Assembly: GCA_044225175.1 (NCBI GenBank)
Contig: JBGAJA010000002.1
Coordinates: forward strand, 408,991 to 472,990
Length of the DNA: 64,000 bases
Direction of reading: 5' to 3'
From: Candidatus Omnitrophota bacterium
Lineage (GTDB): Bacteria > Omnitrophota > Gorgyraeia > Zapsychrales > Fredricksoniimonadaceae
Part shown: in pieces, positions 4,025 through 64,000 of the stretch
Layout: each line of letters opens with the position of its first letter
Position numbering within the stretch: the stretch's first letter is position 1
Notes under the pieces: model-generated
Seen by the model: only the letters and a program-made list of their open reading frames with translations
Told to the model about the DNA's origin: nothing
The model's database searches: none
Program-made: the position numbers and the translations under genes

Positions 4025-6547
4025 ATGCCCTATACTACAAACGATATTAAAGCAATTGAAGCCAAGTGGCAGAAATTCTGGGATGATCAGAAGACCTTTA
4101 AGGTTGAAGCGGATCCTTCTAAGAAGAAGTATTATGTCTTGGAAATGTTCCCATATCCCTCCGGCAAAATCCACATGGGCCATGTGCGCAATTACACAAT
4201 TGGCGATGTGATTGCCCGTTACAAAATGATGCAAGGTTTTAATGTACTACATCCCATTGGCTATGATGCCTTTGGACAACCCGCCGAAAACGCAGCAATC
4301 AAACACAAAACAAATCCCTCTGACTGGACATACAAATGCATTGAACAAATGCATGACGAATTAAAGAAGATGGGATTTTCTTATAACTGGGACCGTGAAT
4401 TCTCGACCTGTGATAGTGAATACTACAAATGGAATCAGTGGATTTTTATTAAGATGTATGAGAAGGGCTTAGCTTATAAGAAAGCTTCTTCCGTTAATTG
4501 GTGCCCTAGTTGTCAGACGACACTCGCCAATGAAGAAGTGATTGATGGGGCTTGTTGGCGGTGCAAAACAGTTGTGGATCAAAAAGATTTGGATCAATGG
4601 TATCTGAAGATCACTCAGTATGCTGAAAGCTTACTGGAAGATTTGAAACAGTTGGATCAATGGCCTTCACGTGTGCGTGCCATGCAAGAGAATTGGATTG
4701 GTAAAAGCTTTGGTGTGGAGATTTATTTCAAAATTGTAGGGGTGGGTTCCAAACCCACCCAACAAAAGGCAGGTTTAGAACCTGCCCCTACAGATGATGT
4801 AATCAAGGTTTTCACCACACGTCCGGATACTATCTTTGGTGCAACCTACGTCGTACTTGCCCCTGAACATCCCTTAGTTAAGAAATTGGTTAAAGGAACT
4901 CCTCAAGAAAAAGATGTTTTAGCATTTATCGAAAAGACGGCTAATAAAAGCAAGTCTATGCGTATGTCTGGTGGAGAACGTAAAGAAGGAATAGCTCTTG
5001 GGATTCATGCGATTAATCCAGTGAATGGAGAATCTATTCCAGTATTTATAGGGGACTATGTTCTCATGGATTATGGAACGGGTGCCATTATGGCAGTTCC
5101 AACACATGATCAGCGTGATTTCGAATTTGCCAACACGCATAAGCTTCCCATGCGCATTGTTATTCAGCATCCCAAAGAAGCCTTTACATTAGAAAGCATG
5201 TCTCAAGCCTATGAGGATCCAGGTGTTCTTGTGAATTCCAAGGAATTTGATGGCATTGGTAATGAAGAAGCTAAGAAGAAAATTGGCGAATGGATGACTC
5301 AAGAAAAAATGGGTAAGATCACTGTCCACTGGCGCTTGCGTGATTGGCTTATTTCTCGTCAGCGTTATTGGGGAACGCCCATTCCTATGATCTATTGTGA
5401 TAGTTGCGGGGTTGTACCTGTTCCTTATGAACAATTGCCCGTTGAATTGCCTAAGAATGTTGAGATTACAGGTCAGGGAGGCAGTCCATTAAATCGTGTG
5501 TCAGAATTCGTGAATGTGTCTTGTCCTAAATGCAAGAAAGCAGCCCGTCGTGAAACAGACACGATGGCCACATTCTTTGATTCTTCTTGGTATTTCTTAA
5601 GATTTTGCTCCGCACATAATGATAAAGAGGTGTTTAATAAGAATAATGCCAAGTATTGGATGACAGTTGATCAATACATTGGGGGGATTGAACATGCCAT
5701 TCTTCATTTGCTCTATTCTCGTTTCTTCACCAAGTTCTTTAAAGATTTAGGATTGATTGACTCAAGCGAACCTTTTAACCGTTTACTGACTCAAGGGATG
5801 GTGCTTAAAGATGGGGAGGTCATGTCTAAGTCTCGGGGCAATACGGTGGATCCAGATGAAGTCTTAAGCAAATATGGTGCAGATACACTTCGTTTGTTCA
5901 TTCTTTTTGCAGCTCCTCCAGAAGATCAACTGGAGTGGAATAGCGACGGGCTAGAAGGTTCTTGGAGGTTCTTGAATCGTGTGTATCAAATGGTTGAGAA
6001 ACGTTATGTGAAAGATGTAAAAGAAGAGGGTAAGGATCAGGTATTGGAACGAGCCCGTCATTCTGCCATCAAACAAATCACTCAATCGTTTGAAGAAGGA
6101 TATAAATTTAATACCGCTATCAGCCAGATGATGATTTTGGCAAATGCCATTGATAAATATAAGCCAGAATCCACGAGCACATTGAATCAAGCCATCGAAA
6201 CGCTCGTCTTATTATTAGGCCCTTTTGCGCCTCACATGTGCGAAGAGCTTTGGCAAATGATGTCCGCCAGAGGCGGATCCGCCTTTGGCGGAGGTCAAGA
6301 CTATTCTAGTATTAGCCGTGTTGCCTGGCCCAAATTCGATGAAGCAGCCCTTATCCAAGATGAAATCACATATGCCATTCAAATCAATGGTAAGGTCAGA
6401 AGCGAAGTCAAAGCCTCAGTCACAGCCACCCAAGAAGACTTGCAGAAGTTAGTCTTAGCCGATGCCAATGTCGCCCGCTATTTAGAGGGCGCCACCATCA
6501 AAAAATTCATTGTCGTCCCAAAGAAATTAGTTAGTATAGTCATTTAG
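4025..6547 (+). CDS. leuS: Leucyl-tRNA synthetase.
   Basis: HMGH motif (PSGKIHMGHVRNY), a KMSKS-like SKSRGN motif, 840 aa. The gene carries two in-frame palindromic insertions (4736-4791 and 6266-6299). Confidence 0.95.
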   Translation: MPYTTNDIKAIEAKWQKFWDDQKTFKVEADPSKKKYYVLEMFPYPSGKIHMGHVRNYTIGDVIARYKMMQGFNVLHPIGYDAFGQPAENAAIKHKTNPSDWTYKCIEQMHDELKKMGFSYNWDREFSTCDSEYYKWNQWIFIKMYEKGLAYKKASSVNWCPSCQTTLANEEVIDGACWRCKTVVDQKDLDQWYLKITQYAESLLEDLKQLDQWPSRVRAMQENWIGKSFGVEIYFKIVGVGSKPTQQKAGLEPAPTDDVIKVFTTRPDTIFGATYVVLAPEHPLVKKLVKGTPQEKDVLAFIEKTANKSKSMRMSGGERKEGIALGIHAINPVNGESIPVFIGDYVLMDYGTGAIMAVPTHDQRDFEFANTHKLPMRIVIQHPKEAFTLESMSQAYEDPGVLVNSKEFDGIGNEEAKKKIGEWMTQEKMGKITVHWRLRDWLISRQRYWGTPIPMIYCDSCGVVPVPYEQLPVELPKNVEITGQGGSPLNRVSEFVNVSCPKCKKAARRETDTMATFFDSSWYFLRFCSAHNDKEVFNKNNAKYWMTVDQYIGGIEHAILHLLYSRFFTKFFKDLGLIDSSEPFNRLLTQGMVLKDGEVMSKSRGNTVDPDEVLSKYGADTLRLFILFAAPPEDQLEWNSDGLEGSWRFLNRVYQMVEKRYVKDVKEEGKDQVLERARHSAIKQITQSFEEGYKFNTAISQMMILANAIDKYKPESTSTLNQAIETLVLLLGPFAPHMCEELWQMMSARGGSAFGGGQDYSSISRVAWPKFDEAALIQDEITYAIQINGKVRSEVKASVTATQEDLQKLVLADANVARYLEGATIKKFIVVPKKLVSIVI
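4736..4791. repeat. REP-like nested palindrome, family A, with outer stem GTAGGG...CCCTAC. It lies in frame inside leuS.
   Basis: The sequence is gtaggggtgggttccaaacccacccaacaaaaggcaggtttagaacctgcccctac. It contains two internal hairpins, GGTGGGTT/AACCCACC and GCAGGTTT/AACCTGC. Its translation within leuS is VGVGSKPTQQKAGLEPAPT. Confidence 0.85.
6266..6299. repeat. 22-bp perfect palindrome CCAGAGGCGGATCCGCCTTTGG plus flanks, family D. It lies in frame inside leuS.
   Basis: A nearly identical 34-nt stretch is found at 29555-29588 inside the second large secreted protein gene. Within leuS it translates as ARGGSAFGGGQ. Confidence 0.7.
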
Positions 6548-6553
6548 TTGTCC

Positions 6554-6578
6554 CCGTAATCCCCTTACGGTTTAAATA
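6554..6578 (+). terminator. Candidate rho-independent terminator after leuS.
   Basis: A CCGTAA/TTACGG stem with a tcccc loop, followed by tttaaat. Confidence 0.3.
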
Positions 6579-6619
6579 AAAATTCCCCAAAAATCCCAAA
6601 AAATCCACGAGGGGAACCT

Positions 6620-7171
6620 ATGTCTGAAAGAAAGCAATTACGGTTAAAGAATTATGAATATTCTGCGGCGGGGTATTATTTTGTGACGATTTGTGTTCAG
6701 GATCGTGTTCGTTTGTTTGGGGAAATAATAAATAATGAAATGATTTTAAACGAAACCGGAGAAATTCTAAAATTTACATGGTTTGATTTGGTAAATCATA
6801 ATGCAAATATTATATTGGATCATTTTGTGATCATGCCGAATCATATTCATGGAATTATACAAATCGTAGGGGCGGGTTCTGAACCCGCCTTTATGCCCAA
6901 TGGGGCAGGTTTGGAACCTGCCCCTACGACATTGGCAGAAATTGTTCGTCAATTTAAAACATTTTCATCAAAACGAATCAATAAATTATGCAATACGCCG
7001 GGCACAAAAATCTGGCAACGCAATTATTATGAACGTGTTATCAGAAATGAAAAAGAATTGAATAATATTCGACAATATATACAAGACAATCCTATAAATT
7101 GGGAATTTGATGAAAATTATTGTAGAGGTGGGTTCCAAACCCACCTTTTATGCGTAATAGGGCAGGTTTAG
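6620..7171 (+). mobile_element. REP-associated tyrosine transposase (RAYT, IS200/IS605-like TnpA_REP). It carries an internal REP insertion and a 3' end encoded by a REP.
   Basis: HuH motif (PNHIHGII) and the RAYT signature WQRNYYERVIRNE. A REP copy lies in frame between these two motifs, and another overlaps the last 16 codons. Confidence 0.85.
6866..6927. repeat. REP-like palindrome, family A, in frame inside the RAYT gene.
   Basis: The sequence is gtaggggcgggttctgaacccgcctttatgcccaatggggcaggtttggaacctgcccctac. It translates as VGAGSEPAFMPNGAGLEPAPT. Confidence 0.85.
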
Positions 7172-7184
7172 AACCTGCCCCTAC
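7122..7184. repeat. REP-like palindrome, family A, overlapping the RAYT 3' end and stop codon.
   Basis: The sequence is gtagaggtgggttccaaacccaccttttatgcgtaatagggcaggtttagaacctgcccctac. Confidence 0.85.
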
Positions 7185-7226
7185 GTAGATATTGTAAATA
7201 TTAATTGATTGGAATATACTGTCTTC

Positions 7227-8513
7227 ATGAAATTTTACGCTGACCTTCATATTCATTCCAAATACTCCCGTGCTACATCCAAAGATCTTGATTTAGAACA
7301 CCTTTACCTGTGGGCCCAATATAAGGGGATTCACGTCGTGGGGACAGGGGATTTTGTGCATCCGGCTTGGCTTAAAGAGATGGAAGAGAAGTTAGAGCCG
7401 GCTGAAGAAGGGTTATTTAAGCTTAAAGATCAATTTGCTAAAGAGATCGATAAAATTGTCCCAAAATCCTGCCAAATGCCCGTCCGATTTATGCTGACGG
7501 TTGAGATTTCTAATATTTATAAGAGGTTAGATAAGGTACGTAAGGTCCATAATTTGATTTGGGCGCCTTCGATTGAATCAGCTAAGAAGATTCAGGCCAA
7601 GCTTGGCAGCATTGGTAATATCAAATCCGACGGGCGACCTATTCTGGGCCTTGATTCTAAAGATCTGCTGGAAATTACACTCGAAGCAGATCCCAAAAAC
7701 ATCTTTGTTCCAGCCCATATCTGGACGCCTTGGTTTTCTGCACTTGGTTCAATGGGTGGCTTTGATCGTATGGAAGATTGCTTTGCAGATCTAACCAAGC
7801 ATATCTTTGCCGTTGAAACTGGTCTTTCATCAGATCCTTTGATGAATTGGCGGCTTAAGCAATTGGATTCATTTATTCTAGTCTCTAACTCTGATGCTCA
7901 TTCTCCTGGCAAATTAGGACGCGAGTGTAATGTATTTGATACAGAATTATCTTACCCTGCCATTTATAGTGCTTTATCCAATGAGAATGATAAGGGATTA
8001 GTGGGAACACTTGAGTTTTTTCCTGAAGAAGGAAAGTATCACTACGACGGACATCGTAATTGCCATGTGCGCTGGCATCCGAAACAAACAATTGAGAATC
8101 AGGGAATATGTACAGGTTGCGGGAAACCTGTCACTGTGGGCGTCATGGCTCGTGTCGAGCAATTAGCGGATAGACCCGAAGGACAAAAAGGCAAACGCCA
8201 TCGTCCTTATTGGAATTTAGTGACTTTACCGGAAGTCATTGCGGGAGCTAAAGGTGTTGGTTCCTCTAGTAAAGCCGTTCAAGCCGTGTATATGAATATG
8301 CTTAGCCAGATTGGCAATGAGTTCTATATCTTACTTGATGCTTCGATCGATGAAATTCGCTCTGTTGCAGGAGAGGTTATTGCAGAGGGAATTAGCCGCA
8401 TGCGAAAAGGTGATATTAAGATTGCAGCTGGATATGATGGTGAGTATGGAACGATTGAAATCTTCAAAGACGGCGAGCGCGATTTAATCGAAAAGCAATT
8501 GGCACTCTTCTAA
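7227..8513 (+). CDS. PHP-domain phosphoesterase/nuclease, EndoQ-like (TIGR00375-type). The ORF track starts at a TTG at 7209.
   Basis: N-terminal MKFYADLHIHSKYS PHP motif, additional His/Asp clusters, and a C-terminal CTGCGKP zinc-finger-like motif. The stop overlaps the start of the helicase gene (TAATG). Confidence 0.6.
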   Translation: MKFYADLHIHSKYSRATSKDLDLEHLYLWAQYKGIHVVGTGDFVHPAWLKEMEEKLEPAEEGLFKLKDQFAKEIDKIVPKSCQMPVRFMLTVEISNIYKRLDKVRKVHNLIWAPSIESAKKIQAKLGSIGNIKSDGRPILGLDSKDLLEITLEADPKNIFVPAHIWTPWFSALGSMGGFDRMEDCFADLTKHIFAVETGLSSDPLMNWRLKQLDSFILVSNSDAHSPGKLGRECNVFDTELSYPAIYSALSNENDKGLVGTLEFFPEEGKYHYDGHRNCHVRWHPKQTIENQGICTGCGKPVTVGVMARVEQLADRPEGQKGKRHRPYWNLVTLPEVIAGAKGVGSSSKAVQAVYMNMLSQIGNEFYILLDASIDEIRSVAGEVIAEGISRMRKGDIKIAAGYDGEYGTIEIFKDGERDLIEKQLALF

Positions 8514-10156
8514 TGAATTTCCCAAGACCAACAGATTTAAATGATGCACAGTGGAATGCCGTTTCCCACGATGATTCCCACCTTATGATCGTCGCAGGAC
8601 CAGGCACAGGAAAGACGCACACAATCACCTATCGTATTATTCGCACCATTCAAAAATTAAAACAAGATCAAAAGATCCTAGCGATCACATTTACCAATAA
8701 AGCAGCCAATCAGATGCGTGAGCGTTTGGAGGCAAAGATTCCCAATTATTGGAGACAGGTAAATGTAGGTACATTTCATCGTTTTGCTTTGAGTTTACTG
8801 CGGGAGTTTAGTCAGTACTTGCCTTTGCCAAAAGATTTTCAAATTGCTCTTCCTGAAGATATTCAGGAATGTCTAAGTGAGATTTTCCCTCAGAAAAGCC
8901 CCTTGCAGCGCAAAGAAACGCTGGAGGCAATATCTTGGATGAAATCCACTCAATTGGCTATTGATCCCTCCGAAGACTTCCAGAAATACCACCGCTTCTT
9001 AAGAGCCAAAGGTATGATTGATTTTGATGATATCTTACGAGAAGTTTTGATGCTTTTGGAGAATGAAGAGGTGTTACATAAGGTGCAAGGCAGATATCGT
9101 TACATCTTTGTGGACGAATATCAGGATGTGAATATTGTTCAGAATGCGTTGTTGAAATTGATTGTAGGGGTAACCCCCTGTGGTTGCCCTGAAGATAAGG
9201 GCAGGCACGGGGGCCTGCCCCTACTGACGGTTATCGGTGACCCTAATCAATCGATCTATGGCTTTCGTGGTTCTCAGGTGAAATTCTTTAATCGTTTCGA
9301 AGAAGATTTTCCAGGAGCTGCCAAGCTATACCTAAATGAGAATTATCGTTCAACAGCTAATCTTCTAACGGCCAGTTCTCAGGTCATCAATAAAGACCCT
9401 GGAGGCAAAGTTCCAGAGGCCATTGCCAAGATCTACGACGAGGGAAGACTTGTTATTCATGAAGCAGCAACTGACAGAGCAGAAGCTGAGTATGTGGCTC
9501 ATCAGATTGAACAATTGATTGGCGGAGTGAGCATGTTCTCTCAAGACTCCAATCGTGTTGAAACATATAGGCAGGCGCACCGTAGTTTTGGCGATATCGC
9601 TATTTTGTATCGCCTTAACACCCAAAAGAATGTATTGATTGAAGCGCTTGATCATTTAGGAATTCCTTATAGTGTGTCTTCTAAACCTAAGGTAGGGGCG
9701 GCTCTTGCAGACGCCCTTTTAGGGCAGGGGCAAGCCCTGCCCCTACAGACACAGGAACAGAAAGATGAACAGATATTAAATTGTTTCGAAGAATCCTTGG
9801 ACTACAAAGTAGAAAAGGTCTCTCTTTTAACATTACATGCTGCCAAAGGTTTGGAATTTCCTGTTGTTTTTATTGTCGGATGCGAAGCAAAGCTAATTCC
9901 CTTGGACATCAACGATCTTAAAGGCGACATCCAAGAAGAACGCCGGCTTTTTTATGTGGGGATGACACGAGCAAAAGAACATTTGTTTTTAACTAGAGCA
10001 GGACGGCGTCAAATCTTTGGAACCACGGTATTTAATCCACCCTCTATGTTTTTAGCTGACATTGAAGAAGACCTTAAAGCCTATGAGAATTCCAAGCTTC
10101 GCCGAAAATTATCTAAAAGCAAGGAAGCCGAGAAACAGCAGTTGAAATTGTTTTAG
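8513..10156 (+). CDS. Short UvrD/PcrA/Rep-family SF1 DNA helicase.
   Basis: Walker A (AGPGTGKTHT), motif II (FVDEYQD), motif III (VIGDPNQSIYGFRG), and a C-terminal segment LTLHAAKGLEFPVVF..FYVGMTRAK. It carries two in-frame REP insertions. Confidence 0.8.
   Translation: MNFPRPTDLNDAQWNAVSHDDSHLMIVAGPGTGKTHTITYRIIRTIQKLKQDQKILAITFTNKAANQMRERLEAKIPNYWRQVNVGTFHRFALSLLREFSQYLPLPKDFQIALPEDIQECLSEIFPQKSPLQRKETLEAISWMKSTQLAIDPSEDFQKYHRFLRAKGMIDFDDILREVLMLLENEEVLHKVQGRYRYIFVDEYQDVNIVQNALLKLIVGVTPCGCPEDKGRHGGLPLLTVIGDPNQSIYGFRGSQVKFFNRFEEDFPGAAKLYLNENYRSTANLLTASSQVINKDPGGKVPEAIAKIYDEGRLVIHEAATDRAEAEYVAHQIEQLIGGVSMFSQDSNRVETYRQAHRSFGDIAILYRLNTQKNVLIEALDHLGIPYSVSSKPKVGAALADALLGQGQALPLQTQEQKDEQILNCFEESLDYKVEKVSLLTLHAAKGLEFPVVFIVGCEAKLIPLDINDLKGDIQEERRLFYVGMTRAKEHLFLTRAGRRQIFGTTVFNPPSMFLADIEEDLKAYENSKLRRKLSKSKEAEKQQLKLF
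9164..9224. repeat. REP-like palindrome, family A variant, in frame inside the UvrD-like helicase.
   Basis: The sequence is gtaggggtaaccccctgtggttgccctgaagataagggcaggcacgggggcctgcccctac. It translates as VGVTPCGCPEDKGRHGGLPLL and lies immediately before motif III. Confidence 0.8.
9692..9746. repeat. REP-like palindrome, family A variant, in frame inside the UvrD-like helicase.
   Basis: The sequence is gtaggggcggctcttgcagacgcccttttagggcaggggcaagccctgcccctac. It translates as VGAALADALLGQGQALPLQ. Confidence 0.8.
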
Positions 10157-10168
10157 ATTTTTACTATA

Positions 10169-10257
10169 GTGTCATTGCGAAGCCGATGTTTTTGTCGGCT
10201 GAAGCAATCTTACATGACAGATTGCTTCGTCGCAAAAAGCGCTCCTCGCAATGACAC
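10169..10257. repeat. Complex nested palindrome, family B, with outer inverted repeat GTGTCATTGCGA...TCGCAATGACAC.
   Basis: Homologous copies are at 14454-14535 and 18603-18687. The GTG start proposed for comEA by the ORF track lies inside this element. Confidence 0.8.
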
Positions 10258-10318
10258 TGTACTTATAAGCCAATCCCCTGGCTTTTTTAATAACTTCCCA
10301 ACCATATATTATTTTCCC

Positions 10319-10654
10319 ATGATTCATTTAACACCTCAGGAAAAATCTGTAGTTATATGTCTTTGTGTGATTACTCTATGCGGATCACTCGTTCATGTGG
10401 GTTTGCAGAAAGAGATACGTGTGTTTGATTGGCTGCACACAGCCCAGAAGAAGTCATTTGCAACCACGATCAATATTAATAAAGCCTCAATGGAGGAGTT
10501 GTTAAGGGTTCCTGGCATTGGGCCCAAGACAGCAGAATTCATCTTAGATTATCGAACCTCAAAGGGAAAATTCACCAATCTGAATCCTTTGCAAGAGGCT
10601 AGAGGCATGAGCCCGGAGCGTTATGAACGTATTAGCAAATATCTTAAAATTTGA
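10319..10654 (+). CDS. comEA: ComEA-like helix-hairpin-helix DNA-binding protein. The start was trimmed to MIHLTPQEK after the repeat; the ORF track starts at a GTG at 10169.
   Basis: N-terminal TM/signal-like segment, and ASMEELLRVPGIGPKTAEFILDYR, a tandem HhH motif typical of ComEA. Confidence 0.65.
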   Translation: MIHLTPQEKSVVICLCVITLCGSLVHVGLQKEIRVFDWLHTAQKKSFATTININKASMEELLRVPGIGPKTAEFILDYRTSKGKFTNLNPLQEARGMSPERYERISKYLKI

Positions 10655-25114: not shown

Positions 25115-25173
25115 GTAGGGGCGGCCCCCTGTGGCCGCCCTTAATAAGGGCCGGCACAGGGGCCTGCCCCTAC
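25115..25173. repeat. REP-like palindrome, family A variant, in the dnaK-dnaJ intergenic region.
   Basis: The sequence is gtaggggcggccccctgtggccgcccttaataagggccggcacaggggcctgcccctac. Confidence 0.8.
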
Positions 25174-26671: not shown

Positions 26672-26710
26672 TTCTTTAAATCTTATCTAGTCCTATTTAA
26701 GAGGTGAATT

Positions 26711-29700
26711 TTGTTTCAACGCGGGACATCATTAGGTGTACTTCTAGCTTTCTGTCTATCCTTGATTGCTCCTTATCAAACGGTTTGGGCTAAAGATGCG
26801 GGATTGATTTTGCCGAAACCCGGGGCAATGGTTAATTTAAGCCCTGCTTTTGAGCCTGTGATGATGAAGGGATTGAAGGTTGATCCGAAGAATCCGTTTC
26901 GGTTTGAATTCATTTTGGATCCAGGTGACGTAGGGGTGGGTTCTAAAACCATCCCTACGGATTTGAAAATCGAATCCACCAAATTAATCAAATATTTCCT
27001 CGCCTCTTTAACCATCCCCGAAAAAGACCTTTGGGTCAATTTATCTCCTTATGAAAAAGATCGAATGATTCCTTCCACCTTGGCCCAGACTGAGATGGGA
27101 CGTGATATGTTGTCCCAGGATTACATCCTCAAACAGCTAACAGCCTCTTTGATCTATCCTGAGAAAGAACTGGGAAAGGCGTTCTGGGATAAGGTCTATT
27201 CCAAAGCTCAAGCAATCTACGGAAGCACCCAGATTCCAGTGAACACCTTTAACAAGGTTTGGATTGTCGCAGACAAGGCAGATGTATTTGAGAGGGGAAA
27301 TGTAGCGTATGTGGTGGGGGCACATTTGAAGGTGATGCTAGAAGAAGACTATTTAGCGAATTCGAAAAATCAATTGCCAGCCAGGGGACATGTTCCGGAC
27401 AAAACCAACAGGAACGTGTCCCCCAGCACTTTGCCAAGCCATGTCGGGTTGGAAATGAAAGCAACCCAGGGACAATCACCAAACGTATTAGGAAACCAAA
27501 TCATCCGCGAAATTGTCCTTCCTGCTCTCGAACAAGAAATCAACACCGGCAAGCATTTCGCCCTCTTACGCCAGATGTTTTATTCCATGATCCTAGCCAG
27601 TTGGTACAAAATGGCGCTCAAGGATGCACTCATTTCTAAAATTTACGGCAATCAAAGTAAGGTCAAGGTGGGCATTAACCAGAAAGATATTAAAACCAAC
27701 GACGAAATCTTCAATCAATACCTGAAAGCTTACAAGAAGGGAGTGTTTAATTACATCAAGGAAGACATTTCCGCCATAGGCGGAACCGCCTCTGGCGGAG
27801 ATCACACTCGTCAACAACGTATCCCTAGGAAATATTTTTCAGGTGGAGAGCACGTTTGGCAATACCTAGATCATGCTCGGGTGGTCCATATGATCCCTAG
27901 AGGAACAAGTTTTGCAAATCAAGCCATGATTGCAGTGGTGGATATGACGCCTAAATCTAAAAATTCCGCCATGGCTTCAAAATTGACCCCTAATCAAATC
28001 ATCAATTTATTTAATCAAAAGTTTCCAGATAAGCATAAGCAGATTGCAGGGCTTCCTATTGCTGATGTTCAAAGCATAATAAATCCTACTACACAAAGAG
28101 CGTTTTATAGGGACTTTAAGAATAGAACAGAAAGAGATGGGATAGTGTTTAGCCGTTCCGCGACTAATCCTGTTTTTCTTAACAACTATATTAATCATAT
28201 TATGAAATTTGTTAAACCAGGTCAGAAAATTCTGTGTGTGGGAGAAGGCAGGGGCCATGTGGCTGCGGAATTAAAGAAAAGAGGGATAGATGTTTATGCC
28301 ATTGATCTGAGTGAGGAAAATACTGTTATTTCAAAAAGAAAAGGTGTTAACCAAATGGTTGGAGATGCCAGGGATTTACTTAAGCTGTACGGTCCAGAAA
28401 ATTTTGATATTGTGCTTTTTAGCGAATCCATAGGAGCAATGCCTATGGAGGACGTTTTAAAACAGGCCCATCTTGTGTTAAAACAAGGCGGAAATCTTCT
28501 GATCGGCGCTTATCCATCAACAGAAGAACGGGTGAAGATATCTCATCGGAGTAAATTCGTATATTATTCCACCCTTGAAATTAATGAAGCCCTCACTAAA
28601 GCTAAGTTTTCACATTTTCATCATGAACCCGTTTATGAAAATCCTGTCAATTTCTTTGATCTAGATGAAATGCCTGCAACATATCTTAATTTATTCGTAG
28701 CAACTAAACCACAAACAATGGATCTGCAATCCAGACAGGATCGTGCGATGGGAGTTCTTCAAGAAGATATTTCAAGGGAATTCTTATTGCTTCAAAGAAA
28801 AGTTCAGGAGTTACTTCAATATATTTTAATTGATGAAAATTGGGCAACATCACAACCAGTTACCTCAGAAATTTTTGAGGGGTTAGATTTAGATGCAAAC
28901 AGTCTTTTGAATGATTTAAGGACAAATGGTTATCTGAATGCAGCTAATGTCATGACAACAAAGCTTCAGGATCTTGAGTTTTCTTCCTTAATGCAATTTA
29001 CAAACCCCGTTTTTTCAGCCAAGAAATATGAGATTCACCAGAGAATTAAGAAGTTAAGACCGCTTATGGACTTTCGCGATATCACCCATCATGCTTTAAC
29101 AGGCCTTCTTTATTTTATGCTGATTTTAAGTACGGAAGACCTTCAAATCCTAGAAAAATTCAAAACAGACGAATTGGATGATATTGCGCATCTTTTATCG
29201 GGTTTGGGGGCTTCTTTAGGAAACCTTAATCAATATGAGATTCCAGGTGAATTAAGTACCAAGGATTTTATGTTTGCAACTCAATTGGGTAGGGTCGTGG
29301 GGGGGGTGCAACGAGCTTTGAAGGATCGAGTCTTTTTAGAAGAACATCAACAAGCAATCGCAGAAGTTGTCCAAAGGATTGAATTGATAAGCGAGCAAAC
29401 TAATCAAATCATTAAGCAAATCAGAGACCAGGCCATGAGTAATACCCCAGTTGATTCCACCAAACGTACAACACCAGGAGGTATTGACTTTGATCGCTCT
29501 AAAATGCAAATGAATGTGTCTAAAGAAGGCCAGGGAGTTCAAATGGATGCTCCAGCCAGAGGCAGGTCCGCCTTTGGCGGAGATCAAGCTATGATCGAAC
29601 GCATTCAGCGGGAGGGTTTTGATGGTTTAGAGTTTACTATTCGATCTCTTGAACCAGTGAAAGATTTGGAGTTGTTTTTGGGACTAAAAGAAAAGCCCCT

Positions 29701-29722
29701 AAGTCTTGCCGTTGCAAAATAA
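26711..29722 (+). CDS. Large secreted modular protein, paralog 2 (1003 aa), with a class I SAM-dependent methyltransferase module.
   Basis: Signal peptide. The N- and C-terminal domains are shared with paralog 1. A KILCVGEGRGHVAAE...IDLSE...GDARDL..FDIVLF Rossmann methyltransferase motif lies near 28226-28450. Confidence 0.6.
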   Translation: MFQRGTSLGVLLAFCLSLIAPYQTVWAKDAGLILPKPGAMVNLSPAFEPVMMKGLKVDPKNPFRFEFILDPGDVGVGSKTIPTDLKIESTKLIKYFLASLTIPEKDLWVNLSPYEKDRMIPSTLAQTEMGRDMLSQDYILKQLTASLIYPEKELGKAFWDKVYSKAQAIYGSTQIPVNTFNKVWIVADKADVFERGNVAYVVGAHLKVMLEEDYLANSKNQLPARGHVPDKTNRNVSPSTLPSHVGLEMKATQGQSPNVLGNQIIREIVLPALEQEINTGKHFALLRQMFYSMILASWYKMALKDALISKIYGNQSKVKVGINQKDIKTNDEIFNQYLKAYKKGVFNYIKEDISAIGGTASGGDHTRQQRIPRKYFSGGEHVWQYLDHARVVHMIPRGTSFANQAMIAVVDMTPKSKNSAMASKLTPNQIINLFNQKFPDKHKQIAGLPIADVQSIINPTTQRAFYRDFKNRTERDGIVFSRSATNPVFLNNYINHIMKFVKPGQKILCVGEGRGHVAAELKKRGIDVYAIDLSEENTVISKRKGVNQMVGDARDLLKLYGPENFDIVLFSESIGAMPMEDVLKQAHLVLKQGGNLLIGAYPSTEERVKISHRSKFVYYSTLEINEALTKAKFSHFHHEPVYENPVNFFDLDEMPATYLNLFVATKPQTMDLQSRQDRAMGVLQEDISREFLLLQRKVQELLQYILIDENWATSQPVTSEIFEGLDLDANSLLNDLRTNGYLNAANVMTTKLQDLEFSSLMQFTNPVFSAKKYEIHQRIKKLRPLMDFRDITHHALTGLLYFMLILSTEDLQILEKFKTDELDDIAHLLSGLGASLGNLNQYEIPGELSTKDFMFATQLGRVVGGVQRALKDRVFLEEHQQAIAEVVQRIELISEQTNQIIKQIRDQAMSNTPVDSTKRTTPGGIDFDRSKMQMNVSKEGQGVQMDAPARGRSAFGGDQAMIERIQREGFDGLEFTIRSLEPVKDLELFLGLKEKPLSLAVAK
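27384..27424. repeat. Hairpin GGGGACATGTTCC-(15)-GGAACGTGTCCCC, in frame at the hypervariable site of paralog 2.
   Basis: A 13-bp inverted repeat with one mismatch. It occupies the same variable segment where paralog 1 carries the family-B element. Confidence 0.55.
29555..29588. repeat. Family D palindrome copy (CCAGAGGCAGGTCCGCCTTTGG), in frame in paralog 2.
   Basis: About 32 of 34 nt identical to 6266-6299 in leuS. It translates as ARGRSAFGGDQ. Confidence 0.7.
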
Positions 29723-48185: not shown

Positions 48186-48193
48186 TTTAATCC

Positions 48194-48925
48194 ATGAAGA
48201 CCCTAAAAGATACAGATGTGGTGATTCTAGCAGGAGGTTTGGGTAAAAGGCTTCAGTCTGTGACGGGCGGTTCACAGAAGATCCTTGCTCAGATTGATGG
48301 TAAACCTTTTATTAGCATCTTAATTGACTATCTTGCAGCCCAAGGTGCTTCGCGCTTTATCTTATGCACTGGCCATGATGCAAAGAATGTTGAAGAGACG
48401 TTAGCTAATGCCCACAGAGGACTCACTGTTTTATTTTCCAGAGAAGATGAACCTTTGGGTACGGGGGGAGCAATTAAAAAAGGGGCAGGCTTAGTTGAAA
48501 GCGACTTATTTCTGGCTATGAATGGAGATTGTTTTTGTGTGATTGATTATAATCGTATGATTCAAGAGCATCAAATGAACAAAGCCCAAGCCACTATTGC
48601 AATAACACAAATTGCAGATGCTCGAGAATATGGAACAATTGAAATTAATTCGAATAAAGAAATTATTACTTTTAAAGAAAAACAACCAATCTTGCAAAAA
48701 GCTTTGATCAACACTGGTACATATTGTTTGAATCGAAATATATTTAATGTAGGGGTGGGTTCTAAACCCACCCAAGGAAAATTTTCCATCGAATACGATT
48801 TTTTCCCTTATTTGGTTGGGAAAGGTTTTTTTGGGTTTGAAGTAGAAAATAAATTTATAGACATCGGTACGCCTGAGAGATATCAATGGGCGCAACAACA
48901 TTTAGCAGGATTAAATGGAAAATAA
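48194..48925 (+). CDS. hddC: Sugar-1-phosphate nucleotidyltransferase, D-glycero-alpha-D-manno-heptose 1-phosphate guanylyltransferase (HddC)-like.
   Basis: N-terminal VVILAGGLGKRL. The gene carries a half REP (48749-48773) in frame. Confidence 0.65.
   Translation: MKTLKDTDVVILAGGLGKRLQSVTGGSQKILAQIDGKPFISILIDYLAAQGASRFILCTGHDAKNVEETLANAHRGLTVLFSREDEPLGTGGAIKKGAGLVESDLFLAMNGDCFCVIDYNRMIQEHQMNKAQATIAITQIADAREYGTIEINSNKEIITFKEKQPILQKALINTGTYCLNRNIFNVGVGSKPTQGKFSIEYDFFPYLVGKGFFGFEVENKFIDIGTPERYQWAQQHLAGLNGK
48749..48773. repeat. Partial family-A REP (first hairpin only), in frame in the hddC-like gene.
   Basis: The sequence is gtaggggtgggttctaaacccaccc. It translates as VGVGSKPTQ, the same peptide as the leuS insertion. 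Confidence 0.7.
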
Positions 48926-63450: not shown

Positions 63451-63479
63451 GTCAAAAAGGTGTCTGACACCTTTTTGAC
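63451..63479. terminator. Bidirectional rho-independent terminator hairpin.
   Basis: Perfect 14-bp inverted repeat GTCAAAAAGGTGTC-t-GACACCTTTTTGAC. An A-tract and a T-tract flank a GC core. It lies right after the fmt stop. Confidence 0.6.
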
Positions 63480-63511
63480 AATTATATATATACATGGCAT
63501 ACTTTTGCCAT

Positions 63512-64000
63512 CCTATGTTTAAACGTCTTATTGCCTCTATTGTCTGTCTTTGCTTTATTTCTTCAACTGTTCACGTTTCCTATGCCCAGACAGGTTTTAA
63601 ACCTGTCTCTACGTTAAATTTGCCAGAACCAGGCACTATGGTAGGCCCCTCAGTACCTTTTACACCTTTGTCCTTAAAAGGCCTAGTAATTAACCCTAAA
63701 AAGCCTTTGGAATTTCAATTCATTGTGGATACGGGTACAAATCATACCCCTCCAGATATTCAATCCGAATCCACCAAATTAATCAAATACTTCCTAGCCG
63801 GCCTAACGATTCCTGAAGGAGACCTGTGGGTGAATTTAAGCCCCTATGAGAAGGAACGAATCACCCCCCAAGCCTTAGGCCAGACCGAGTTAGGGCGAGA
63901 TTTGCTGGCGCAAGACTATATCTTAAAGCAGTTAACTGCCTCTTTGATCTATCCTGAGCGTGACCTAGGTAAGGAGTTCTGGAGCCGGGTGTATCAACAG
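63512..64000 (+). CDS. Large secreted modular protein, paralog 3 (N-terminal fragment only; it continues past the window).
   Basis: Signal peptide and the conserved N-terminal domain, including KLIKYFLAGLTIPEGDLWVNLSPYEKERI...LLAQDYILKQLTASLIYPE. Confidence 0.6.

Follow-up and report, generated by a model that had tools for sequence, protein, structure and literature searches.

RAYT genes in general carry REPs on both flanks, an arrangement known as a REPtron, their REP family is dispersed over the genome that hosts them, and their products cut single-stranded REP DNA in a sequence-specific manner. RAYTs are reportedly low-copy genes, present about once per genome (Nunvar 2010; Bertels & Rainey 2011). 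One group of the TnpA-Y1 proteins, subclass 2.4, was defined by Quentin, Siguier, Chandler and Fichant (2018, BMC Genomics 19:475, PMC6006769) and corresponds to group 4 in the RAYT classification of Bertels et al. 2017. Its hallmark is the presence of in-frame REPs within tnpA-REP itself, between the HuH motif and the Y motif, which were modelled as a peripheral extension of the protein (PMC6006769). According to the same study, subclass 2.4 proteins have the motifs NH[IFV]H, WQ and YIxNNP, a median length of 194 aa, an 8-aa insertion at the end of alphaB and a median HuH-to-Y distance of 88 aa, against 58-67 aa in most subclasses, and their length heterogeneity is explained by short DNA repeats. 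The REPs that accompany them are 'long' or 'double-foot' (5' GT[AG]G ... C[TC]AC 3') and are located no more than about 1 kb from the gene; the WQ/E/R region has been assigned to recognition of the GTAG guide, and the subclass occurs abundantly in Cyanobacteria and Bacteroidetes and is scattered over other phyla (PMC6006769). Our further literature search returned this study as the sole relevant match, and Corneloup et al. 2021 (PMC8266576) mention neither subclasses nor intragenic REPs.

In the TnpA-REP of E. coli (RayT, YafM; structure 4ER8), a member of subclass 2.2, Y115 is the catalytic residue and N119 a metal ligand (Messing et al. 2012, PMC3479197). In-frame intragenic GTAG REPs have also been described in many genes, notably in replication and repair genes; orthologous genes can have different REPs at the same site, and REP termini can supply TAG stops to adjoining ORFs (Di Nocera et al. 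2013, PMC3733652).

The window analysed here, that is, the whole 64-kb stretch of DNA, belongs to an Omnitrophota-like MAG and contains a tnpA-REP (RAYT) gene with one REP doublet inside it and another at its 3' end (Table 1). The gene is an ordinary member of the published pattern, neither damaged nor newly invaded, and adds an Omnitrophota example to it. We consider it highly probable that the gene is a functional-looking TnpA-REP/RAYT of subclass 2.4 in an Omnitrophota-like genome, and that a copy of its own REP is tolerated in one of its loops. The sequence-only reading had likewise recognised a RAYT, and the domain models, the HuH motif and the fold bear this out. Pfam Y1_Tnp (PF01797) matches the 183-aa protein above its cut-off (E 2e-07), in the C-terminal half only (residues 103-157), and NCBIfam REP_Tyr_transpos matches it in two stretches (E 1.2e-18) with a score of 67 bits, which is formally below the equivalog cut-off of 80 bits. 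These matches are partial and sub-threshold, respectively, because the domain is split. A protein search with the RAYT returned 7195 homologues; alignment A1 comprises 33 of them at 55-67% identity, and the few that have source names come from Omnitrophica, Nitrospirae, Chloroflexi, Verrucomicrobiae and Kallotenue.

The same reading had taken WQRNYYERVIRNE for the catalytic Tyr motif. Judged by its alignment to 4ER8, this stretch is instead the W/Q/E/R region and the catalytic tyrosine is Y153 in YIQDNP; after this relabelling, the internal REP still lies between HuH and Tyr. Residues were mapped from a phmmer comparison of the RAYT protein with PDB sequences, in which 4ER8 gave a weak match only (E 0.092), so that confidence in the match needed the fold search. 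In that search (Foldseek, with the predicted structure described below), the best solved fold was again 4ER8, TnpA-REP with a REP hairpin (E 6.9e-06, TM 0.52/0.57), followed by the ISDra2, IS608 and IS200 transposases.

Table 1. Positions of the RAYT gene, its motifs and the GTAG REP copies in the window.
Feature	Position	Strand	Details and basis
tnpA-REP / RAYT gene, TnpA-Y1 subclass 2.4 type, intact	6620..7171	+	183 aa; ORF list, Pfam, NCBIfam, homologues, fold
HuH motif H75-I76-H77, in MPNHIHGII	6842..6850	+	Sequence; H75 and H77 invariant in alignment A1; equivalent to E. coli H59-M60-H61
Internal REP doublet, in-frame VGAGSEPAFMPNGAGLEPAPT (21 aa)	6866..6927	+	Sequence, pattern search, ssDNA fold
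WQRNYYERVIR motif, residues 132-142	7013..7045	+	W132, Q133, E138, R142 equivalent to E. coli W94, Q95, E100, R104 (phmmer alignment to 4ER8)
Y motif YIQDNP, residues 153-158	7076..7093	+	Y153 equivalent to E. coli Y115 (catalytic), N157 to metal ligand N119 (4ER8 alignment)
3' flanking REP doublet, same family as internal one	7122..7184	+	Overlaps ORF end; sequence, pattern search, ssDNA fold
Same REP family, doublet inside leuS, in-frame VGVGSKPTQQKAGLEPAPT	4736..4791	+	Pattern search, alignment
Same REP family, single double-foot copy in 1004-aa ORF, in-frame VGVGSKTIPT	26930..26958	+	Pattern search
Same REP family, single hairpin copy, in open frame	48749..48773	+	Pattern search
Same REP family, degenerate single hairpin copy, in open frame	63588..63612	-	Pattern search
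Other GTAG families, two doublets in UvrD-like helicase gene	9164-9224, 9692-9746
Other GTAG family, doublet	25115-25173

On its sequence, the gene has every feature of subclass 2.4 that we checked, with a single residue of the Y motif differing. PNHIH (residues 73-77) agrees with NH[IFV]H, and W132 and Q133 are invariant in A1. In YIQDNP, the Y, the I, the second N and the P agree with YIxNNP, and position 4 is D, not N, as it is in several close homologues in A1. An in-frame REP insertion occupies the beta3-alphaC position (within residues 83-103), and GTAG...CTAC double-foot doublets are found both within the gene and next to it. Like other subclass 2.4 proteins of ~190 aa, this one has no conserved C-terminal extension, conservation stopping at W161/D164 and the tails of homologues being unalignable. 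What sets it apart from the published description (PMC6006769) is the Omnitrophota-like MAG host, the YIQDNP motif, a 5' spacer free of REPs and a 3' REP that overlaps the end of the ORF. With E. coli TnpA-REP (PMC3479197), it shares the HUH/Y1 fold and alignable HuH, W-Q, E, R and Y...N residues at about 20% identity. However, in the E. coli protein the beta3-alphaC loop is short, its gene has no REP inside and its REPs are bulged and imperfect; the C-terminal extension that gives E161 to its metal site is absent here.

The internal doublet, GTAGGGGCGGGTTCTGAACCCGCC-TTTATGCCCAAT-GGGGCAGGTTTGGAACCTGCCCCTAC, directly follows the HuH strand (HIHGIIQI) and consists of two GC-rich hairpins (6866-6889 and 6902-6927) separated by a spacer (6890-6901); its outer feet, GTAG and CTAC, also pair, giving a 'double-foot' palindrome. 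Folded as single-stranded DNA, it reaches -26.3 kcal/mol (z = -7.9), and the 3' doublet has a z-score of -6.6; none of 200 shuffles folded as well as the doublets. The REP core pattern has six matches in the window (three palindromic sites, each on both strands) against 0.00 expected, and a looser pattern has 12 against 0.09 expected. The internal, 3' and leuS doublets align at 85% mean column identity, and their hairpin 1 includes a compensatory stem change (GCGGG/CCCGC versus GTGGG/CCCAC). Both copies at the gene lie exactly where they had been placed from the letters alone, and the proposal that the inserted segment belongs to the RAYT's own REP family agrees with the dispersal of that family over the window (Table 1).

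The 3' doublet starts just past the last conserved residues (NPINWEFDENY) and encodes the last 16 codons (C168-V183) in a frame different from that of the internal copy, as (C)RGGFQTHLLCVIGQV, i.e. CRGGFQTHLLCVIGQV; the TAG stop (7169-7171) falls within the loop of its second hairpin. Because the doublet borders on the conserved domain's end, the protein gains an unstructured tail of 16 residues and the ORF its stop codon. One homologue in A1 (P0026) has a REP-encoded tail of the same kind, and the provision of TAG stops by GTAG REPs has a published precedent (PMC3733652). The 3' copy is probably an ordinary flanking REP that overlaps the ORF end by happenstance. On the other side of the gene, the 72-nt 5' intergenic spacer contains no REP, the closest upstream copy lying 1.8 kb off in leuS, so that the locus does not look like a symmetric REPtron. 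A promoter and terminator scan detected no intrinsic terminator where the 3' REP lies, and its only promoter-like matches were generic and AT-rich.

The ORF is free of frameshifts and internal stops, and it keeps all residues that are invariant across A1. The distance from H77 to Y153, for which the sequence-only reading had advised a comparison with the family, is 76 aa and lies inside the 64-150 aa of the 120 closest homologues (median 85); without the 21-aa insert it would be 55 aa, and H61 and Y115 of the E. coli protein are 54 aa apart. In an AlphaFold2 model derived from the alignment, mean pLDDT is 76.9 and pTM 0.73, and 90 residues have a pLDDT of at least 90. Values below 50 are confined to residues 1-6, to the insert (86-92 and 95-102) and to the REP-encoded tail (170-183). 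In the model, the insert forms a coil between the HuH strand beta3 (75-82) and helix alphaC (105-124), and Y153 is within a further helix (144-163). The insert is therefore predicted to be part of a peripheral, disordered loop, and the core that bears it is modelled with confidence. Taken together, the intact ORF, the retained residues, the spacing within the family range and the predicted position of the loop give no evidence that the gene is decaying.

A REP at this position is the rule in the family. Nearly all homologues in A1 have VGAGSxPA...xAGLEPAPT at the same alignment position as the internal REP. The middle of the loop is hypervariable, from 0 to >100 aa and often with tandem repeats, and its shortest forms, VGAGSEPAPT, correspond to one perfect palindrome. 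Among the 120 closest homologues, VG[AVDT]G lies between HuH and WQ in 101 and an [EK]PxPT-like peptide in 109. We extended the comparison to 80 loci (each up to 20 kb) from species-representative genomes, in which 78 RAYT genes were counted, that of the window included; they come from Planctomycetota, Chloroflexota, Nitrospirota, Spirochaetota, Bacteroidota, Cyanobacteria, Gemmatimonadota, Patescibacteria, Proteobacteria and other phyla. A GT[AG]G-footed sequence is present in the HuH-WQ segment of 71 of these 78 genes (~91%), and in 57 a perfect GC-rich stem of 8 bp or more is found there. The presumption that REPs flank RAYT genes but do not interrupt them thus fails for this subfamily. It had also been held that an extra segment native to homologous RAYTs would speak against a REP insertion: homologues do carry the segment natively, which removes the apparent oddity of this gene, yet the segment is still REP DNA and its REP origin stands.

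The loop carries each lineage's own REP, and it does so family-wide. Loop peptides depend on the lineage (VGAGLKPAPT, VGARHAVPLQ, VGATRRVAPT, VGAQHAAPLH, VGADLCVCPD...GAHAGAPL, CRGGSRTAPT, GRGTLQRAPT and more among the 78 genes), and each is a GTAGGGGC-N-GCCCCTAC palindrome read in one or the other of the two frames that avoid TAG. Of the 78 loci (up to 20 kb), 35 contain, outside the loop, a further exact copy of a 14-mer from it, and 44 do when up to one mismatch is allowed; by our own arithmetic, about 1e-4 exact matches to a 14-mer would be expected by chance in 20 kb when both strands are counted. Among these 44, recurrences lie at most 300 nt from the 3' end of the gene in 17 loci and equally close to the 5' end in 27, and they lie farther away in 25. 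With the loop masked, the inner-stem type of the REP tracks RAYT relatedness (55.3% versus 49.7% identity, matched in none of 1000 label permutations, a significance that is inflated by kinship among the sequences). In the 78-gene sample, then, the copy inside a gene usually agrees with the REPs scattered over its locus, and the type of that copy follows the RAYT clade.

A similar dispersal is seen in the window. Beyond the two copies at the gene, the RAYT-linked family, GTAGGGG[CT][GA]GGTT-N3-AACC[CT][GA]CCCCTAC, is represented in the 64 kb by the leuS doublet and three single copies, where ~0 would be expected, and both doublets and lone copies are thus spread along the window. An insert at the leuS site is lacking in most LeuRS orthologues, and the closest orthologues have differing REP peptides there, VGATPRGRPQEGQAQGPAPT in P0122, VGAGSKPAST in P0123 and a decayed form in P0124. 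These differences at one site show that REPs in this clade have been gained or replaced at permissive sites, mirroring what is seen in the RAYT loop. The nearest named relatives of this LeuRS are from Candidatus Omnitrophica/Omnitrophota, at 66-72% identity, and the assignment of the host is based on them. Separately, a Logan contig (SRR28480385) is 100% identical over 721 nt; it possibly comes from the same sample and is uninformative on REP polymorphism.

In-frame palindromes in functional genes, often dimers and adding 20-30 aa, are also known from the Rickettsia RPEs and from GTAG/CGTC REPs (PMC3733652). However, those are scattered, gene-by-gene events, whereas in subclass 2.4 the host is the cognate transposase and the site is mostly occupied. 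IS200/IS605 TnpA proteins (IS608, ISDra2) resemble the present protein in fold, in HuH/Tyr chemistry and in the recognition of subterminal single-strand hairpins. They are dimeric and multicopy, with hairpins that flank a mobile IS, whereas the gene described here looks single-copy within the 64-kb window and domesticated, and its hairpins are dispersed independently of it.

By homology with E. coli TnpA-REP, the RAYT would be an endonuclease and strand transferase of the HUH/Y1 type that works as a monomer on single-stranded DNA. If it acts on the same kind of substrate as the E. coli enzyme, whose substrate is a GTAG-footed REP hairpin, and as IS200/IS605 TnpA, it may bind such hairpins in single-stranded DNA, cutting and rejoining the strand beside them. 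Cleavage would proceed via Y153, with the metal held by H75, H77 and N157, and such cutting and rejoining could spread or maintain the REP family found across the window. The beta3-alphaC loop of the subclass habitually contains the REP of its own lineage, in frame and in at least one copy. Because the loop is modelled as peripheral and disordered, the 21 REP-encoded residues would be tolerated, and only reading frames in which the foot does not give a TAG stop would survive. The insert is assumed here to be neutral.

It would be tempting to see in the intragenic REP more than a tolerated passenger, since occupancy of one loop in ~91% of the genes exceeds what simple tolerance predicts. The REP might be a cis element kept by selection: a protected master or archival copy through which enzyme and substrate are inherited together, a site for self-regulation, editing or sensing, or an mRNA hairpin that tunes translation. 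Such a role would explain why ~90% of the members keep a well-paired REP of their own in the same loop. The breadth of the occupancy over many phyla (71 of 78), the perfect stem retained in 57 of 78, and the covariation of REP type with RAYT clade are in line with it. It also fits that many REP types start at one and the same codon, directly after HGIIxI, and that the loop has been amplified in tandem in several homologues (e.g. L009, L033, L068 and L072), which suggests ongoing activity at the site. However, the loop REP is absent from some homologues (L023, L027, L078) and decayed in others (L006, L007, L008), and thus is not essential. Moreover, unrelated genes of the same genome commonly carry REPs in frame, and leuS orthologues differ in the REP that they carry at one site, so that retention at permissive sites together with a local insertion bias would suffice without any function. 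We therefore regard selection on the intragenic copy as unlikely, and favour a REP that is tolerated in the loop.

Still less probable, to the point of being very doubtful, is that the gene is a decaying pseudogene, a once-active RAYT recently broken by two insertions of its own REP, with the REPs now moved in trans. REP DNA does lie inside the ORF and at its end, the domain models are partial or sub-threshold, and the other GTAG families in the window (Table 1) imply that the genome may encode additional RAYTs at other places. As for an intact paralogue, a tblastn search with the RAYT found no second RAYT in the 64-kb window, the other matches being REP-encoded peptides only. Against decay stand the absence of frameshifts and internal stops, the retention of every invariant residue, a HuH-to-Tyr spacing that is shorter than the family median, and an insert that falls in a loop modelled as disordered and peripheral. 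Furthermore, the same doublet architecture occupies the same site in homologues of 55-67% identity, which means that it long predates this genome, and genes of this kind are the norm in subclass 2.4 (PMC6006769). The pseudogene reading is hence rejected, largely on the family alignment. Between the two options that the sequence-only reading had offered, a tolerated insertion or a decaying copy, the first is clearly the better one, and the gene should not be annotated as a pseudogene or a disrupted transposase.

Finally, that VGAGSxPA...AGLEPAPT is a protein-level motif resembling REP DNA by coincidence, as the conservation of G84, E99, P100, A101, P102 and T103 (at least 90% in A1) might suggest, is hardly credible. 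This reading is rejected because copies exist outside the gene and because a palindrome constrains the codons: the same nucleotides recur within leuS and further ORFs as well as in the frame-shifted 3' tail, hence in non-homologous contexts and other frames, 44 of the 78 loci have the intragenic 14-mer again at another place, the codons conform to a fixed palindrome (GTA GGG GC. GGT T.. ... ACC.GC CCC TAC) with compensatory stem changes, and in other clades the peptide is the translation of their own REP (e.g. VGARHAVPLQ, VGATRRVAPT, CRGGSRTAPT). Peptides such as VGAGSEPA...AGLEPAPT in MAG proteins thus indicate in-frame REP DNA, not conserved protein motifs.

Within leuS, the window carries a REP doublet of the RAYT's own family (table), at a site where the majority of LeuRS orthologues have no insert. 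The nearest orthologues (80-81% identity) have differing REP-encoded peptides at this site, which reads VGATPRGRPQEGQAQGPAPT in orthologue P0122 and VGAGSKPAST in P0123 and is decayed in P0124. Because differing REP peptides occupy one and the same site in the closest orthologues, these sequences suggest that REP insertion in leuS has been recurrent, or that the element has been replaced in situ. Every in-frame REP in the window is read either in the 'VG..' frame or in an equivalent one that is likewise free of stops.

REP copies in the window outside the RAYT gene.
Feature	Position	Enclosing frame	Remarks
Doublet, RAYT's family	4736-4791	leuS ORF, 4025-6547	in frame, encodes VGVGSKPTQQKAGLEPAPT
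Doublet, other GTAG family	9164-9224	UvrD-like helicase ORF, about 8513-10156	in frame, VGVTPCGCPEDKGRHGGLPLL
Doublet, other GTAG family	9692-9746	UvrD-like helicase ORF, about 8513-10156	in frame, VGAALADALLGQGQALPLQ
GTAG...CTAC doublet	25115-25173		GTAGGGGCGGCCCCCTGTGGCCGCCC / GGGCCGGCACAGGGGCCTGCCCCTAC; related to doublet 9164-9224
Single copy, RAYT's family	26930-26958	1004-aa ORF, 26708-29719	
Single copy, RAYT's family	48749-48773	open frame 48191-48922	
Single copy, RAYT's family	63588-63612	open frame 63479-64000	

A single UvrD-like helicase gene houses two in-frame doublets, neither of the RAYT's family, in agreement with the preference of intragenic REPs for replication and repair genes (Di Nocera 2013, PMC3733652). 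Their presence implies that more REP families exist elsewhere in the genome, possibly together with additional RAYTs. The doublet at 25115-25173 is probably intergenic, since it falls within no open frame of 90 aa or more.

That RAYTs of two types can be neighbours, each with its own intragenic REP, follows from two of the RAYT loci fetched from species-representative genomes, L003 (7224) and L031 (11198), in which a second, more divergent RAYT-like gene lies about 1-3 kb from the first. These second genes have a longer alphaC-beta4 region and a distinct REP in the beta3-alphaC loop (VGADPCVCPD... / VGADLCVCPD...GAHAGAPL). The loop REP forms a tandem array in some other homologues, around position 10200-10450 in loci L009, L033, L068 and L072. 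L009, for instance, has about eight RAGLE repeats, L033 has four of GPCAVPK, and L068 contains RRAPT/ERAPT units. Short repeats in the RAYT loop were mentioned, without a mechanism, by Quentin 2018 (PMC6006769); the tandem arrays suggest that hairpin units undergo slippage or are sites of repeated activity.

The 72-nt leuS-RAYT spacer (6548-6619) contains no GTAG REP, its sole hairpin being a small one (CCGTAA-tcccc-TTACGG). The RAYT may be co-transcribed with leuS, and a Shine-Dalgarno-like GAGGGG lies in the spacer 6 nt upstream of the RAYT ATG.
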